From Thiotrichaceae bacterium (GTDB lineage Bacteria > Pseudomonadota > Gammaproteobacteria > Eutrophobiales > Eutrophobiaceae), in assembly GCA_012960105.1 (NCBI GenBank), contig DUBV01000051.1, forward strand, positions 15,898 to 79,897: 64,000 bases of DNA. The letters are read 5' to 3'. Below, in pieces: positions 19,775 through 33,760 of the stretch. The translations under genes and the position numbers were made by a program. The notes under the pieces were generated by a model that saw only the letters and a list, made by a program, of their open reading frames with translations, was not told the DNA's origin and ran no database searches. How positions within the stretch are numbered: position 1 is the stretch's first letter; each line of letters begins with the position of its first letter.

Positions 19775-20755
19775 ATGCAGTCTTTATCCTGGCAAGAACA
19801 ACTGGCACAGGCTATACGCCAACCAAATGACTTACTCGACTATGTGGGTCTTATGGCTGACAGTATTGGTTACAGTCAACAATCTATAGAACAGTTCCCT
19901 GTTCGTGTCCCTTATGCTTTTGCCGACCGCATACAACGAAATAATCCAGACGATCCCCTTTTACGTCAGGTATTTCCGTATATAGATGAAGAGGATGATT
20001 GTGAAGGTTATGTTAATGACCCTTTGGCAGAAGCCAACGTACAGCCAGTACAAGGACTGTTGCATAAATATAATAGCCGCGTCCTGTCTATATCGACAGG
20101 CGCCTGTGCTATCCATTGCCGTTATTGCTTCCGTCGGCACTTTCCCTATCAAGAATCATCCACAAATGGGAAGCACCTAGAACAAAGTTTAGACTACATC
20201 CGATCAGACGAAACGATCAAAGAAGTGATTCTTAGCGGCGGCGACCCTTTGACATTGTCTGATCGACGTTTAATCGAACTATGTCAGGCTCTTTCGCAGA
20301 TCGATCATATAAAACGTATCCGTTTTCACACTCGCATCCCTGTCGTACTGCCTGCTCGTCTCTCAGAAGAGTTAATCAAGCAAATTGCGAATATAGGAAA
20401 AACACTAATTTTCGTCTTGCATATCAATCATGCTAATGAAATTGATGATGCTGTTATCAATAATATTAAACTATTACGTCGTTTTAATATTCTGGTACTT
20501 AATCAATCAGTGTTATTAAAAGGGATAAATGACTCGACGGAATCTTTAATCGCACTTTCCGAACGTCTGGTTGAGAACCAAGTAACGCCCTATTATTTAC
20601 ACCTGTTAGATCCCGTAACTGGCACCGCTCATTTCAATGTAGACGAACAAGTCGCCAAAATTCTTATCCAGAAAATGCATGAATCTGTATCGGGCTATCT
20701 TGTTCCCAGGCTAGTAAAAGAAGAAGTAGGTAAAGCAGGTAAAACCCGAGTTTAA
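19775..20755 (+). CDS. epmB: EF-P beta-lysylation protein EpmB (lysine 2,3-aminomutase-like radical SAM)
   Basis: 326 aa with the CAIHCRYCFRR radical-SAM cluster motif. Divergent from efp as in E. coli (yjeK-efp). Confidence 0.9.
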   Translation: MQSLSWQEQLAQAIRQPNDLLDYVGLMADSIGYSQQSIEQFPVRVPYAFADRIQRNNPDDPLLRQVFPYIDEEDDCEGYVNDPLAEANVQPVQGLLHKYNSRVLSISTGACAIHCRYCFRRHFPYQESSTNGKHLEQSLDYIRSDETIKEVILSGGDPLTLSDRRLIELCQALSQIDHIKRIRFHTRIPVVLPARLSEELIKQIANIGKTLIFVLHINHANEIDDAVINNIKLLRRFNILVLNQSVLLKGINDSTESLIALSERLVENQVTPYYLHLLDPVTGTAHFNVDEQVAKILIQKMHESVSGYLVPRLVKEEVGKAGKTRV

Positions 20756-20844: not shown

Positions 20845-20875
20845 AAGCCGGGCGTTATGACCCCGGCTTTTTTTA
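20845..20875 (+). terminator. Rho-independent terminator downstream of epmB
   Basis: agccggg-(cgttatgac)-cccggct followed by a run of 8 T. Confidence 0.75.
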
Positions 20876-21028
20876 TATCCATGGATGGATAGTTATGTCG
20901 CGAGAAGGCAGGACGCCTGAAACGATGATTTACACGGATGTACGGTATCTTAGAATATTTAAATTAAATCTAACAATCGCTCACTGATAAACCTGTATAT
21001 GCGATTTTCTGCATAAGTAGATTAATTT

Positions 21029-23281
21029 CTACGGCTCAGGTTTAATTCTAATTACGTTTCTGTAACCTCGAGTCAACATATTTCCTCGTCGACCACGTTC
21101 ACCAATATAATACTCTTGATCTGCTGATTTCAGCGTCACATGCTTTTTACCCGAGTAAACAACTAACTTATCAGTTTCCCCCATTGCCGTTATAGCAATA
21201 ACATATTCCTCACGTGTTTTAAATTTTGCTGGTGGTATTTGAATGATTTTCAGACCTTTTCCTTTTGGTAATAAAGTCAATTCACTAATTGGAAACATCA
21301 ACATACGTCCTATTGACGTTACTGCTGCGACCCAATCATTTTTAATATCATTAACTTTGCTTGGAGCTAAAACTTTTCCGCCTTTCGGTACGGATATAAT
21401 TGACTTACCATTTCTATTTTTTGTATAAATATCTTCAAGCTTAACCATAAAGCCATAACCCGCATCTGAAGCAACAAGATATATAGTATCAGGATCGCCG
21501 GCCATAACACCTTCAAAAGTAACACCATCCGGCGGTGTTAAACGAGCAGAGATCGGCTCACCTAAACTTCGTGCTGAAGGTAAAGAATGTGCCGGCAACG
21601 AATAACAGCGTCCACTTGAATCAACAAAGACAGCAAGCTGATTACTTCTGCCTAAGCTTGCCTGTTTAAAACTATCACCACTTTTATAATTTAATGTTTC
21701 TGGATCAACTTCATGTCCTTTAGCCGCCCTCACCCAACCTTTGTCTGAAAGTACAATTGTGACCGGCTCTGTTGGAACAAGACTAGTCTCATCGATAGCT
21801 TTCGCTTCTACGCCTTCTTTTAATGGTGACTTGCGAGCATCACCGTACTCTTTCGCATCAGCTTCGATTTCTTTTCTTACTAAAGTTTTTAAGCGTTGAT
21901 TAGAACCTAAAATTTTATCTAGCTCTTTACGTTCTTTACTTAACTCAGCTAGTTCACCTTTGATCTTGATCTCTTCAAGTTTAGCTAACTTACGTAATTT
22001 TAAATCAAGAACTGCATCAGCCTGAATATCACTTAACTTAAAGCGTTTCATTAATACCGCTTTCGGTTTATCTTGTTCACGAATGATTTGAATTACTTCA
22101 TCAATATTCAGATAAGCAATCATCAAACCTTCGAGCATATGAATTTGCGCAAGAATCTTATCTAAACGGAATTGTAATCTTCTACGTACCGTTTCTGTTC
22201 TGTACTCCAACCATTCTTTCAAGATACCCCTTAGATCTTTAACTTGAGGACGACCATTCAAACCAATGATATTTAAATTAACGCGATAACTGCGTTCAAG
22301 ATCAGTAGTTGCGAATAAGTGCAACATCACCTCTTGAAGATTAATACGATTAGAACGAGGAATAAGAATGAGTCGAATTGGATTTTCATGATCGGATTCA
22401 TCACGCAAATCTTCCAACATGGGTAATTTTTTCGCCTGCATCTGTGCGGCAATTTGTTCTAGTATTTTGCTCCCGGAACTTTGATGCGGCAGCGCAGTGA
22501 CAACAATATTGCCATCTTCCTTTTCCCAAATAGCACGCATTTTGATCGAACCGTGTCCAGTTTCATACATTTCTTGTATGGCTGACTTGGGTGTAATAAT
22601 TTCAGCCTTCGTCGGATAATCTGGTCCTTTAATATGTTTGCAGAGTTCTTTAACAGTGCTCTTGGGAGATTCCAGTAAACGAATACAAGCACTAGCAACT
22701 TCTTTGAGATTATGCGGTGGAATATCGGTTGCCATTCCAACAGCAATACCCGTAGTTCCATTTAGGAGAATATTCGGTAAACGTGCAGGTAATATTTTTG
22801 GCTCTTCTAATGTCCCATCAAAATTTGGAGTCCAATCAACGGTGCCCTGACTCACTTCACCAAGTAAAACATCAGCATAAGGTGTGAGTTTTGATTCGGT
22901 GTATCTCATGGCAGCAAAGGACTTAGGATCATCCATCGAACCCCAGTTGCCTTGACCGTCGATCAAAGGATAACGATAGGAAAAATCCTGTGCCATCAAG
23001 ACCATGGCTTCATAACAGGCAGAATCACCATGCGGGTGAAATTTACCCAATACATCACCGATAGTACGAGCAGATTTTTTATACTTCGCTGTTGCTTTTA
23101 AACCCAATTCCGACATGGCATAAACAATTCGTCGTTGCACCGGTTTCAGACCATCACCGATATGCGGTAAAGCACGGTCGAGAATGACGTACATTGAATA
23201 ATCCAGATAAGCCTTCTCGGTAAATTCCTGTAACGGTTGTTGTTCGTTTTGCTCGAAGTCAAAACTCATTGAATCTGGCAC
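21029..23281 (-). CDS. parC: DNA topoisomerase IV subunit A
   Basis: 750 aa GyrA/ParC family with the catalytic Tyr region (AAMRYTE). Its size and lack of a GyrA box, plus the adjacent parE, favour ParC. Confidence 0.88.
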
Positions 23282-28984: not shown

Positions 28985-29244
28985 CTATTGTAATATCCAT
29001 GATAATTGTAAATACGTGTTCAGAGTGCGTCAGTTTTTATTTAGGGCAAGACGCGACAATCCGCATGGCTGCCCCCTGCAAAGAGGAGCAACGTCGCCAT
29101 GGATTAAAACCGACGTGCTAAGAAAATGCATTTACAATTATCATGGATATCTATCAAACTTGACCTTATTAAGGTTTCGCATAAAACTAGGGGCATATTC
29201 TAAGGCAAAAGGCGTTACAAGACTCTAAACAACGATGAATTGAC

Positions 29245-31128: not shown

Positions 31129-31497
31129 ATGAAGTCATTAATCATCGCTTTAGTCTTGGTACTAACATCATCATCAACCTTCGCTATTGATAGTAAAGGC
31201 AATTATGCCGTATGGGGACTAGGCAAAAAATCCTGTTTTGGATACACCCAGGCAATTGCTGGCGGAGATATCGAAAATTTCAAACATTATATCAAGGGTT
31301 TCTTAACCGCCTATAATATGTTTACCGAGAAAACCTACAGCATTGCCCGAAAAATGAATATAAATGAGATTGCTGAATCGCTAGAAGATTATTGTGCTGA
31401 AAACCCAATGTCTGGCTTTGAAACCGCCCTACTTAATTTCACGTTTGACCGTTATGATAGTCGCTTGAAAAGGTCTGGTAATTCTGTCGGACGTTAA
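31129..31497 (+). CDS. Hypothetical secreted protein
   Basis: 122 aa with signal peptide MKSLIIALVLVLTSSSTFA|ID and two Cys. No known domain recognised. Confidence 0.5.
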   Translation: MKSLIIALVLVLTSSSTFAIDSKGNYAVWGLGKKSCFGYTQAIAGGDIENFKHYIKGFLTAYNMFTEKTYSIARKMNINEIAESLEDYCAENPMSGFETALLNFTFDRYDSRLKRSGNSVGR

Positions 31498-31679: not shown

Positions 31680-31958
31680 ATGCAAAAAATTATTAAAGTT
31701 TCTATTCTTGCTCTATCACTTGCTATGCTTGGTGGTTGTGCAGATATGACTCAAATCAACGAAGCTAAAGCATCTGCTGCTGCTGCAATGTCAAAAGCAA
31801 CTGACGCTTATAACCTAGCTACAATCGGACATGGAATTGCTTCTGAAGCTGCATATGCCGCTCAACAAGCACAATCTACTGCTGATGCTGCATTAGAATG
31901 TTGTAGTGCAAATTCTCAAAAGCTTGATCGCATGTTTGAAAAAGCAATGATGAAGTAA
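31680..31958 (+). CDS. lpp: Braun (murein) lipoprotein-like Lpp homolog with C-terminal Lys
   Basis: 92 aa. Lipobox LAMLGG|C, an Ala-rich coiled-coil, and a C-terminus (NSQKLDRMFEKAMMK) resembling E. coli Lpp (ANQRLDNMATKYRK) with the terminal Lys used for peptidoglycan attachment. Strong terminator follows. Confidence 0.65.
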   Translation: MQKIIKVSILALSLAMLGGCADMTQINEAKASAAAAMSKATDAYNLATIGHGIASEAAYAAQQAQSTADAALECCSANSQKLDRMFEKAMMK

Positions 31959-31987
31959 GAACTAGAAATTTATTTCTAAGTTTTTAA

Positions 31988-32022
31988 AGCCCTTATTCGA
32001 AAGAATCAGGGGCTTTTTTTTA
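31988..32022 (+). terminator. Rho-independent terminator of lpp-like gene
   Basis: agcccttattc-(gaaa)-gaatcaggggct followed by 8 T. Confidence 0.8.
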
Positions 32023-32039
32023 TTTACAGGGACCGTAAT

Positions 32040-32340
32040 GTATATCTTTTATGCACGACTGCATGGATGCAGGAGATAGAGCGACACAGGAGTCAAAGCC
32101 GAGGAGTACACAAAAGATGATGTCCTTGGATGGACTGTCATGATTATTGTTCCTAACTAATCATAAGTGCCTGCGTCCATGCAGGCAATGTAGTGAGAGG
32201 ACACGACTGCATGGAAGCAGGAGTTAGAACAATGTCGGGAACATTTGCCGGGGAGTCCGAAGCAACGATGACCACAGGGAAGTAGGCGGTAGACACCAAC
32301 TGTAGGCACTTCAGACGGCGTCGGAAACAAGCTGTCGAAA
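32040..32340 (+). ncRNA. Candidate structured non-coding RNA, GGA-motif-rich (CsrB/RsmY/RsmZ-like CsrA-titrating sRNA candidate)
   Basis: GC-rich patch in an AT-rich genome with no credible ORF. At least 12 GGA triplets lie on the + strand in about 260 nt, several in hairpin loops (ctgca-UGGA-ugcag) and CAGGAG/ACAGGAG contexts. Boundaries are approximate and no clear 3' terminator was found. Confidence 0.35.
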
Positions 32341-32426
32341 ATGCTAAGTCACACTGGATAATTAAATAAAGTAGCGAATTTAATAAAAGATAAAAATCTA
32401 AGCAGTAGACACCAGTTGTAAGCACG
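32053..32426. repeat. Local imperfect direct and inverted repeats of palindromic motifs
   Basis: cacgactgcatggatgcaggag (32053-32074) is repeated as cacgactgcatggaagcaggag (32203-32224). An inverted copy, cctgcgtccatgcagg, lies at 32170-32185. gtagacaccaactgtaggcac (32289-32309) is repeated as gtagacaccagttgtaagcac (32406-32426). Confidence 0.7.
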
Positions 32427-32515
32427 TAAAAGTAAAACGACGGTTGTCGATAAGAGATGAAGTTACAGGATATTTAATAAAGTAATTCTTAATAAGAGAA
32501 GAACTTCAAATACTT

Positions 32516-33760
32516 TTATTTCTTCAAATCAGAATCCATACGTAACTGTAAATTAACTTTCTCTGCCTGAGTAAGTTCTTTATTCAATTTTTCAGCTACT
32601 TTTGCCTGTAGGTCATCATTTAATTTTTTGGTCGCTTTTGAATGTAGGGCATCACTTAGTTCTCCATCCACTTTAACCTGAAGACTTTCAGTTAGTTTCC
32701 CGATCACTTTTACCTGAGACTTATGGCTTGATTTTTTAGCCACTTTTAGCGGAGACTTCTGAGTTTCTTTTTTAACCGTTTTTACCTGAGCATTATCAAT
32801 AAATACGTCATCCAATTTTGCTTGTATAACTTCAGGGATATACATACCTATCGCAACAGGCAGTCCACTAGGACTATTGATTGCTCCATATGCTGCTGAC
32901 CAATCTAGTTCATAATTTTGTCCTTTTGACAGATCAATAATCAAGCTAATCACACTGGTTAAATTATTCTCATATTGCTCTGAATCTTCGACCATAAAAG
33001 GATGGGCTTCAATATAGATAACGCTATTTTTCACTCCGATTTTATAAGGCTGATTAATAATATTGACGGGCGTTTTAATCGCAACTTCGGCAAAAAGCGC
33101 TTCGATATCTTCAGGATATAAACGTATACAGCCATGGCTTATACGCATACCTAAGCCATAAGGCTTATTTGTTCCATGAATCAGATAGTCCGGCCGACCT
33201 AAACGCATTGCAAAAAAACCTAATGGGTTATCTGGTCCTGACATCACTACTTTTGGAAGAGGATCACCCTTTTCTTCATGCTCTTTTCTAATCGATGCAG
33301 GCGGGTACCAATTAGGATTTTCTTTTTTCTCAGCAATGTAGGTTTTTATATAAGGTGTATTCCAACCTTCACGACCAACACCAAGAGGATAAGTAAGAAC
33401 CTCTTGCGGTTTTCCCTTTTCTTTCGGCAAATAATAATACAAGCGCATTTCAGGGATATTTAGGACAATACCTTCCTGAGGAGCAACCGGTAAAATGAAT
33501 TGCCCCGGTAAAATTACTTCCTGCCCTTCTCCTGGTAACCAAGTATCAACGTCAGGGTTAATCAGCTTCATATCTTGATAACCAAAACCATGTCGGCGAG
33601 CGATATCAAGCAGGGTATCGCGCTCATCCGCCAAAATAATTTTCGTTTCGCCAATAACGGTGTCTTTTGTACTACTCAAGACATAACGATTCGCATACGC
33701 ATTCGAAATACTACATAGCGCAAGAAAGATTAAGCTTAGGGATTTAACTGTTATTTTCAT
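32516..33760 (-). CDS. L,D-transpeptidase (LysM + YkuD domains) with C-terminal repeat/coiled-coil extension
   Basis: 414 aa with signal peptide. LysM-like segment (DTLLDIARRHGFGYQDMKLINP), YkuD catalytic region (HGTNKPYGLGMRISHGCIRL, catalytic Cys). The C-terminal ~70 aa consist of repeated LQ[AV]KV..KKLN units. Confidence 0.8.
   Translation of the reverse strand: MKITVKSLSLIFLALCSISNAYANRYVLSSTKDTVIGETKIILADERDTLLDIARRHGFGYQDMKLINPDVDTWLPGEGQEVILPGQFILPVAPQEGIVLNIPEMRLYYYLPKEKGKPQEVLTYPLGVGREGWNTPYIKTYIAEKKENPNWYPPASIRKEHEEKGDPLPKVVMSGPDNPLGFFAMRLGRPDYLIHGTNKPYGLGMRISHGCIRLYPEDIEALFAEVAIKTPVNIINQPYKIGVKNSVIYIEAHPFMVEDSEQYENNLTSVISLIIDLSKGQNYELDWSAAYGAINSPSGLPVAIGMYIPEVIQAKLDDVFIDNAQVKTVKKETQKSPLKVAKKSSHKSQVKVIGKLTESLQVKVDGELSDALHSKATKKLNDDLQAKVAEKLNKELTQAEKVNLQLRMDSDLKK

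Follow-up and report, generated by a model that had tools for sequence, protein, structure and literature searches.

What is the GGA-rich, non-coding element that follows a lipoprotein gene (lpp) in the Thiotrichaceae bacterium of contig DUBV01000051.1, and could its GGA motifs serve as binding sites for the regulator CsrA? The window analysed here is a stretch of 64,000 nt of this contig (positions 15,898 to 79,897 of the forward strand, assembly GCA_012960105.1), in which the element occupies positions 32024-32455. It is a lineage-specific, modular array that carries GGA in hairpin loops on the lpp-sense (+) strand, directly behind the intrinsic terminator of lpp. With a probability of roughly 45% we read this array as a CsrA-binding 3' extension or sponge RNA, which would be made by transcriptional read-through of the lpp terminator and would have been built from duplicating modules. 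The evidence for this reading came from the composition and anatomy of the element and from its comparison with related loci, which are indicated by L numbers.

The intergenic region (IGR) is 557 nt long (31959-32515) and separates an OprI/Lpp-type lipoprotein gene (Alanine_zipper, 31680-31958, + strand, Pfam PF11839, E = 1.4e-8) from a convergent gene for a YkuD L,D-transpeptidase (ykuD, 32516-33760, - strand, Pfam PF03734, E = 3.7e-21), which bounds the element. The lpp terminator, as read from the sequence, is an extended, GC-clamped hairpin that has GAAA in its loop and is followed by 8 U (31988-32022, + strand), and a terminator of this type was found in every orthologous IGR, whether the element was present or not. 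A non-coding, GGA-rich, repeat-bearing element at this site had been proposed in an initial annotation based on the letters only; it is present, and its coordinates were off by 1-2 nt at most. The statement that it holds no credible open reading frame (ORF) was also confirmed. The only ORFs within the IGR encode 90 and 57 amino acids (aa), both on the minus strand and both without a Pfam match, and no reading frame across the element is kept among the relatives, whose elements vary by indels and rearrangements. The G + C content is above that of the flanks, as had been claimed (0.43-0.49 at 32000-32400 compared to 0.30-0.39). In the region 32040-32340, GGA occurs 13 times on the + strand and 4 times on the - strand. 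A sliding 300-nt count placed the GGA maximum of the window in the element, with 14 per 300 nt, which is ~7 standard deviations over the mean of the window (mean 2.5, standard deviation 1.6); the runner-up reached 8-10.

The elements of the window and its relatives are mosaics of a few module types, which grow, shrink and decay through duplication, inversion, nesting and loss of modules of ~25-50 nt. The first module, designated H1 (32024-32038, + strand), is a GGA-loop hairpin, UUAC-AGGGACC-GUAA, that starts 1 nt past the U-tract of the terminator. Across species H1 is a hairpin of 4-7 bp that begins 1-5 nt past the U-tract and has AGGAU, AUGGAU, AAGGAU, ACGGAU or AGGGACC in its loop, while the stem varies by species (GUAC/GUAC, GUCC/GGAC, GUUC/GGAC, UUAC/GUAA, CGCCUAC/GUAGGCG). 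In nine aligned orthologues, 97% of the pair cells were paired, two of the four pairs were doubly compensated and none of 500 shuffles matched the covariation score. H1 is followed by a long hairpin (32044-32118, + strand, arms 32044-32056 and 32106-32118), recognised as inverted repeat I4 and in the local fold, which holds copy 1 of a 27-nt direct repeat (32054-32080, with the hairpin CUGCA-UGGA-UGCAG, CTGCA-TGGA-TGCAG as DNA, at 32059-32072) as well as the motifs ACAGGAG and CGAGGAG. Since the outer hairpin of L012 closes straight onto a GCAGGAGC loop, the hairpin in the window carries a loop insertion of ~50 nt.

The next segment is a core of three hairpins (32122-32187, + strand). RNAalifold on the window, L008 and L041 gave 21 pairs for this core, 7 of which showed compensatory double changes among the three species, and the core was the sole segment with a significant folding z-score (-2.86). 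Its hairpins are GUCC-UUGGAU-GGAC (32122-32135), hp2 (AUGAUUA-UUGUUCCUAAC-UAAUCAU, 32140-32164) and hp3 (UGCCUGCG-UCCA-UGCAGGCA, 32168-32187); hp3 is an inverted GGA hairpin and corresponds to what had been described as an inverted copy of the palindrome (32170-32184). Copy 2 of the 27-nt repeat, CACGAC-CUGC-AUGGAA-GCAG-GAGUUAGA (32202-32228, + strand, hairpin CTGC-ATGGAA-GCAG at 32207-32220), is 93% identical to copy 1, and the repeat (CACGAC-CUGCA-UGGA-UGCAG-GAGAUAGA) recurs in L048, where it follows the isocitrate lyase gene (aceA) and its stem is compensated to CUACA/UGUAG. More GGA hairpins (AAUGU-CGGGA-ACAUU at 32231-32245) and a degenerate third repeat copy (32267-32293) make up positions 32231-32293 (+ strand). 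Copy 1 of a second repeat (32283-32309) and the hairpin HC, here GACGGC-GUCGGAAACAA-GCUGUC (32314-32336), together form a unit at 32283-32340 (+ strand), of which a decayed duplicate (32399-32455, + strand, 81% repeat D2) marks the 3' limit of the element; this duplicate is AT-drifted, has lost its GGA and retains the remnant CGACGGTTGTCGA. The two copies of the second repeat (32283-32309 and 32399-32425) are spaced 116 nt apart, close to the 115 nt or so given before, and all direct, inverted and second repeat copies of the initial annotation are in the sequence.

Two further modules were compared over many copies. The HC hairpin (GACAGC-GUCGGGAACAA-GCUGUC) was 95% paired over 14 copies, and its only variation, A-U to G.U, is compatible with pairing on the + strand alone. 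M2 is a two-tier hairpin with AUGGAU in the apical loop and an internal AGGA, of which the outer stem covaries (GCCGC/GCGGC, GUUGC/GCAAC, CGUCGC/GCGACG, GCCGU/ACGGC; 3 pairs doubly compensated). Nesting of modules within loops was seen in L038, L048 and at 32044-32118 of the window. R1, a covariance model of H1 and HC together, matched the window at 32269-32340 (E = 2e-5). We also observed that the loops of hp2 (UUGUUCC) and HC (GGAACAA), both of them conserved, are complementary to each other (window 32147-32157 and 32320-32330). The match covers 6-7 nt in L008 and L009, whereas in the window it covers 5 nt and, with a bulge, another 2; judged from the sequence, it might serve as a kissing contact within the molecule or as an anti-GGA element.

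The strand on which these helices are selected was read from their substitutions. An A.C mismatch on the + strand is a G.U pair on the other strand, and in all tested helices read on the + strand G.U pairs outnumbered A.C mismatches by 27 to 6 (p = 3e-4, with pair cells that are not independent). Simple hairpins with GGA in the loop made up 64 of the 193 found on the + strand compared to 11 of the 220 on the - strand. Because of these two biases the helices are selected as the single-stranded form of the lpp-sense strand, for which RNA is the natural reading. Local folds of the element put GGA in loops. In the relatives, GGA was unpaired above the level of shuffled sequences: for L012, L048 and L035 none of 60 shuffles was as high, and for L038 the unpaired value was 0.74 versus 0.63.

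A YkuD scan of GTDB representative genomes and look-ups of YkuD homologues yielded ~23 related species of which the lpp/ykuD loci were compared. All are uncultured marine or sediment Gammaproteobacteria (YkuD 58-74% identical, G + C content 37-40%), and the convergent lpp/ykuD synteny was constant in all relatives examined. In ~15 of the 23 species a homologous modular element was present directly 3' of the lpp terminator. At the short extreme the post-terminator stretch measured only 0-22 nt and was devoid of GGA (L007, L013-L016, L044); in L038 it was 340 nt with 17 GGA on the + strand and 1 on the - strand, and the stretch in the window was the longest of the set (494 nt, GGA 16 versus 4). 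Summed over 23 orthologous IGRs, GGA totalled 94 on the lpp-sense strand and 27 on the opposite strand. Contigs of metagenome-assembled genomes of the same species, labelled 'Thiotrichaceae bacterium' or 'Gammaproteobacteria bacterium' at NCBI, contained near-identical copies with one single-nucleotide polymorphism (SNP). This SNP, the sole one among seven same-species contigs, is a T to C change in the hp3 stem (L003:3493, equivalent to window position 32172); it breaks the pair on the + strand and leaves a possible wobble pair on the minus strand. Retention at the same site in species with YkuD only 58-74% identical argues for vertical retention under selection. Together, the retention at one orthologous site, the compensatory changes, the fixed loop and the strand bias point to a selected function of single strands (RNA) of the CsrA-site type.

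The likeness to CsrA sites lies in the loops. The CsrA consensus that Dubey et al. (2005) are said to have obtained by SELEX (systematic evolution of ligands by exponential enrichment) is RUACARGGAUGU, and the loops with closing pairs CUACAAGGAUGU, CUACAUGGAUGU and GUACAGGAUGUAC are 1-2 positions off this consensus. The GGA contexts of the element had been claimed to match the CsrA consensus, and the CUACAAGGAUGU and GUACAGGAUGUAC loops do come close. The combination of H1 and HC presents two GGA ~25 nt apart, a spacing compatible with bridging by a CsrA dimer. For CsrA sites a rule that GGA lies in a loop has been described (PMC8144298). The covarying left arm of H1 starts so close behind the U-tract that there is no room for a promoter of the element's own, and read-through is therefore the sole + strand route that fits the anatomy. 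We propose that polymerase reading through the lpp terminator would transcribe the array. Going by motif similarity, the 3' extension made in this way, or a processed fragment of it, would offer many sites of the CsrA/RsmA type (~14 GGA for the window, as many as 17 for a relative). On the same grounds, the paired sites ~25 nt apart would suit a CsrA dimer. Such an RNA might titrate CsrA in proportion to lpp transcription, comparable to RrA/B/F or to the 3' untranslated region (3'UTR)-derived RsmW.

Since modules of the array recur elsewhere, it belongs at the same time to a repeat family of low copy number. Within the window, blastn with the element library and folding identified a second post-terminator element (20847-20945, + strand) with three GGA-loop hairpins, UAUCC-AUGGAU-GGAUA, GGC-AGGAC-GCC and UACA-CGGA-UGUA. 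Immediately upstream of it is the terminator of a radical-SAM gene (19775-20755), which faces the convergent parC (21029-23281), and by eye the 5' part of this second element is closer to the elements in the lpp IGRs of L043 and L011 than to the window's own lpp element. Scanning metagenomes with the HC pattern gave five loci, of which only one was an lpp locus. In L048 (45% G + C), an array of ~400 nt lies behind the aceA terminator and before a co-directional NUDIX gene, with left junction CUUUUUUAUGUAC; in L046 (50% G + C), an array at the contig end precedes a protease-like gene. L049 and L050 each contain a single H1 plus HC module nested in another inverted repeat (GTCATTGCGAGGA ... GCAATC), with inverted pairs in L050; the nested modules are at L049:1-140 and L050:1240-1500. 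In L049 a Tox-PAAR-like (type VI secretion) gene follows the module at ~55 nt, with its Shine-Dalgarno sequence CAGGAG right after the module, a layout that on sequence resembles a CsrA-regulated leader. Behind three terminators, those of lpp, the radical-SAM gene and aceA, the left junction is the same: the U-tract and then AU(G/U)UAC.

A different kind of insertion was found in L009, where ~250 nt (602-855) separate acrA and acrB; the window has only ~6 nt there. The termini of this insertion are inverted (56 nt imperfect, 17 nt perfect), and its interior contains HC-like, hp3-like and GGA modules. To the same terminal inverted repeat (TIR) family belongs an element of 158 nt in the window, between the divergent mazG and HNH genes (28993-29150), which resembles a miniature inverted-repeat transposable element (MITE). 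Its 55-nt arms are 78% complementary and end in perfect 21-nt termini (ATATCCATGATAATTGTAAAT), and it is the longest inverted repeat of the window. In ~264 kb of related sequence, R1 and the blastn library of all elements retrieved only 1-2 extra copies. The modules had no match in plasmid records, viral contigs and E. coli genomes, and a search of the rest of the window for the palindrome and the repeat motifs with up to 3 mismatches gave nothing beyond chance. A scan of all loci for GGA density was uninformative, as it was swamped by unrelated high-GC loci.

Several of these observations, and some others, weigh against a CsrA-binding RNA made by read-through. The lpp terminator looks strong (a stem of 9-10 bp plus 6-8 U). 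No + strand 3' terminator was found between 32340 and the ykuD stop codon, nor at this place in L008, L009, L012 and L038, and a defined 3' end of the array was not found. The chance expectation of about 4 GGA in the initial annotation is right for the genome background but not for the local purine-rich composition, against which the excess is modest (7.9 in shuffles, p ~0.01-0.03). Similarly, its claim that GGA falls in hairpin loops holds for local folds and simple hairpins but not for a fold of the whole element in the window, in which 6 of 14 GGA are open and the unpaired value is 0.46 versus 0.49 in shuffles, because the inverted hairpin (32170-32184) can pair with two CUGCAUGGAUGCAG modules. 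The covariation is based on few species with pair cells that are not independent, and the bias towards G.T would be expected equally from a single-stranded DNA hairpin, as used by some transposases. Neither csrA nor uvrY gave a tblastn match in the 64-kb window or in the related loci included in this search. The element is absent or degenerate in ~8 of the 23 related species and therefore dispensable. The radical-SAM gene upstream of the second copy is unlikely to be highly expressed, the module of L050 is antisense to both adjacent genes, and the GGA strand of the L009 insertion is antisense to the operon. Loss, module shuffling, a copy at an ordinary gene, antisense copies and nesting in TIRs are traits of a repeat family. 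Finally, three contigs break inside elements (L012:7560-7606, L046:4163-4203, L049:1-85). Assemblies typically break in this way where a repeat is multicopy, and the breaks hint that these genomes contain several copies, more than the window does.

These traits lead to the rival that survives best, namely a selfish or neutral repeat without a role for CsrA, similar to repetitive extragenic palindromic (REP) sequences and bacterial interspersed mosaic elements (BIMEs) or to a MITE, which settles just past intrinsic terminators and has accumulated in the convergent gap between lpp and ykuD. Its GGA loops and strand bias would then stem from recognition of the element's own single-stranded DNA. 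We consider this explanation unlikely, though it has much in its favour: the modules at unrelated loci in lineages of different G + C content (aceA in L048, the protease-like gene in L046, the nested copies of L049 and L050), the second post-terminator copy in the window, the modules bounded by inverted termini in L009, the one left junction behind three different terminators, the variation in presence, absence and size among close relatives, the contig breaks, and direct and inverted copies that are adjacent, as in BIMEs. On the other hand, the window has no dispersed copies of the exact palindromes, and extra copies are few in the related sequence searched. The short stems of 4-7 bp differ between copies while the GGA in the loop is constant, the opposite of what copy-and-paste repeats show, and GTAG, as in GGUAGAC, occurs in part of the modules without heading them consistently. 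Over deep divergence the lpp copy remains orthologous, with compensatory changes, the element at 32024-32455 has no terminal inverted repeats or target duplication (the only inverted match, I3, is of 15 nt and 87% AT-rich), no gene of the RAYT or IS200 type was found in the window, which is a weak test, and plasmids, viral contigs and E. coli genomes had no match. A dispersed repeat had been named in the initial annotation as the finding that would count against a regulatory RNA; the exact palindromes are confined to the IGR within the window, but related modules do exist at other loci.

The repeat and the sponge need not conflict, provided that the modules are duplicative cassettes with a function wherever they are transcribed. 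A bolder version would hold that the GGA modules are duplicative and possibly mobile cassettes that plant CsrA platforms behind terminators and into leaders in several gammaproteobacterial lineages, and that those at lpp have grown into a promoterless, read-through-fed sponge that ties CsrA activity to the rate at which lpp, the gene for the major envelope lipoprotein, is transcribed. This version we regard as quite unlikely.

An independent small RNA (sRNA) gene of the Csr/Rsm type, merely adjoining lpp, with its own, unrecognised promoter and termination that is distant or depends on Rho, shares the GGA, hairpin and covariation evidence of the read-through RNA, and 300-430 nt with 4-5 GGA per 100 nt is within the range of CsrB and RsmZ. 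We judge it very unlikely. With the H1 arm 1-5 nt past the U-tract in every species, its start would fall inside the terminator. No -10/-35 pair fitting between terminator and H1 was seen, either in a consensus scan or on reading the sequence (the promoter and terminator scan was itself uninformative, as it missed the lpp terminator), and the lpp, aceA and radical-SAM copies have only the U-tract in common upstream. No GacA/UvrY/LetA box with up to 3 mismatches was present at a plausible position; loose LetA-like matches occurred at background rate, 78 per 64 kb. Rfam models of CsrB, CsrC, RsmX, RsmY, RsmZ and TwoAYGGAY gave no match at the gathering score in the whole window or at E <= 10 in the element; the scan at E <= 10 covered the elements of the window, L047 and L048 and returned only terminator-driven noise. 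Of the CsrB/Rsm-like sponge first proposed, the conserved array of GGA hairpins is thus retained, but the Rfam match, the promoter, the Gac/LetA box and the 3' terminator are lacking.

The functional strand might also be the minus strand, either as a structured 3'UTR of ykuD or as an antisense RNA with UCC loops that extends up to a bidirectional terminator. In element-free species a single hairpin terminates lpp and ykuD alike, which means that in species with the element any ykuD transcript has to run through it. Furthermore, hp2 and hp3 have no GGA in their + strand loops, hp3 of L041 shows GGGA on the minus strand, and the SNP of L003 is tolerated as a wobble pair on that strand only. Against this, both the G.U to A.C ratio (27:6) and the count of GGA-loop hairpins (64 versus 11) favour the + strand, the U-tract that the terminator in the window offers to the minus strand is poor (UUUAAAAAC), and the terminator of L048 is unidirectional. 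We regard a minus-strand function as highly improbable.

Least credible is the second proposal of the initial annotation, in which the palindromes would be operators at which a dimeric DNA-binding regulator controls the envelope genes on either side. A 15-nt palindrome does occur in three copies between two functionally linked envelope genes. The half-sites, however, are not conserved: orthologous hairpins retain their pairing and the GGA in the middle with entirely different stems (GUAC, GUCC/GGAC, UUAC/GUAA, CGCCUAC/GUAGGCG, CUGCA/UGCAG), the opposite of a DNA half-site. The element is at the 3' ends of both genes instead of at their promoters and is missing from many relatives that keep both genes. 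The remaining probability goes to a non-functional remnant.

Other features of the locus were noted in passing. A palindrome, CTAGAAATTTATTTCTAAG, is located between the lpp stop codon and the terminator (31962-31980), where L040 has TAAGAAATTTTCTTA; related TTTCTTAG sequences occur also in species without the element, and it is probably a feature of the lpp 3'UTR. As a GacA/LetA box this palindrome was rejected in view of the TTTCTTAG 3'UTRs of element-free species and the background rate of matches. A promoter hidden in the 'loop' of the terminator was likewise rejected, as the conserved AATC is the 3' arm that pairs with GATT. Group IIC introns insert after terminators, but the element is far too short for one, lacks a GUGYG 5' end and had no Rfam intron or ribozyme match; an integron attC site was considered alongside and rejected. 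A dif/Xer site was rejected by eye for GTAATGTATATC, of which the arms match at 6/11 and 3/11 positions. The genes lpp and ykuD, convergent neighbours in all relatives, look like a functional pair; in E. coli, L,D-transpeptidases of this sort attach Lpp to peptidoglycan. YkuD of the window has 414 aa compared to 341-378 aa in most relatives, and the extra C-terminal stretch (32516-32700), which adjoins the element, is lysine-rich and repetitive (KVxxKLxxxLQ-like). A conserved protein of 122 aa without a Pfam match (31129-31497) is always encoded upstream of lpp.

We found no paper that describes this element, nor one that links CsrA to REP or MITE elements. To our knowledge, most CsrA sponge RNAs have been described in cultured Enterobacteria, Vibrio, Pseudomonas and Legionella, where they were found by their Gac-dependent promoters and terminators. 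If our reading is true, uncultured marine Gammaproteobacteria build their CsrA decoys differently, as a promoterless 3' appendage behind the terminator of a very abundant mRNA, made of small mobile or duplicating modules. This would widen the search image for CsrA-decoy RNAs, connect the expression of an envelope lipoprotein with global post-transcriptional control in a testable way, and raise the possibility that repeat elements rewire the CsrA regulon. If the array is only a repeat family, the finding is an ordinary one.

Among known systems, CsrB/CsrC and RsmX/RsmY/RsmZ resemble the element in being non-coding and 100-400 nt long, in having many GGA on one strand, which local folds place largely in the loops of short hairpins, and in ANGGA or CAnGGAnG contexts, and in being repetitive, modular and fast-evolving. 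In contrast to these RNAs, the element has no covariance-model match, no promoter (GacA/UvrY-dependent or any other) and no Rho-independent 3' terminator; it is located behind the terminator of another gene, is lost in many close relatives and has modules at other loci. The TwoAYGGAY motif, reportedly described by Weinberg et al. (2010), consists of hairpins with AYGGAY terminal loops. The element has such loops (AUGGAU, ACGGAU, AUGGAC, ACGGAC), but it differs by its architecture, by its many AGGAU or AAGGAU loops and by the lack of an Rfam match at E <= 10. With REP/BIME, BOX, enterobacterial repetitive intergenic consensus (ERIC) sequences and MITEs it shares an extragenic position at gene 3' ends and in convergent gaps, clusters of direct and inverted hairpins, variable copy number, presence or absence between relatives and occasional nesting in TIR-bounded insertions. 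It differs from these repeats by the few copies in the sequence examined, by short, differing stems with a constant loop, by orthologous, compensated retention and by the absence of a RAYT or transposase among the genes seen.

The remaining comparisons concern RNAs that depend on the promoter of another unit. RsmW of Pseudomonas aeruginosa is an RsmA-binding RNA with 7 GGA that is derived from a 3'UTR, uses the promoter of the upstream gene and is GacA-independent (PMC4950607). It is located upstream of the mRNA terminator, with no terminator between gene and sRNA (PMC4950607), whereas a strong terminator intervenes between lpp and the element. RrA, RrB and RrF of the E. coli rrn operons are CsrA-binding read-through products without a promoter of their own, positioned behind the first terminator of these very highly transcribed units; they end at a second terminator (T2), contain 5 GGA and are tRNA-like remnants (PMC8144298). 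Unlike RrA/B/F, the element has no second terminator, its array is much larger and its second copy in the window lies behind an ordinary radical-SAM gene. Like RrA/B/F, it is promoterless and immediately follows the first terminator of an upstream unit, here one that is presumably transcribed at a very high rate, and through this arrangement CsrA activity would become tied to how fast the unit is transcribed.

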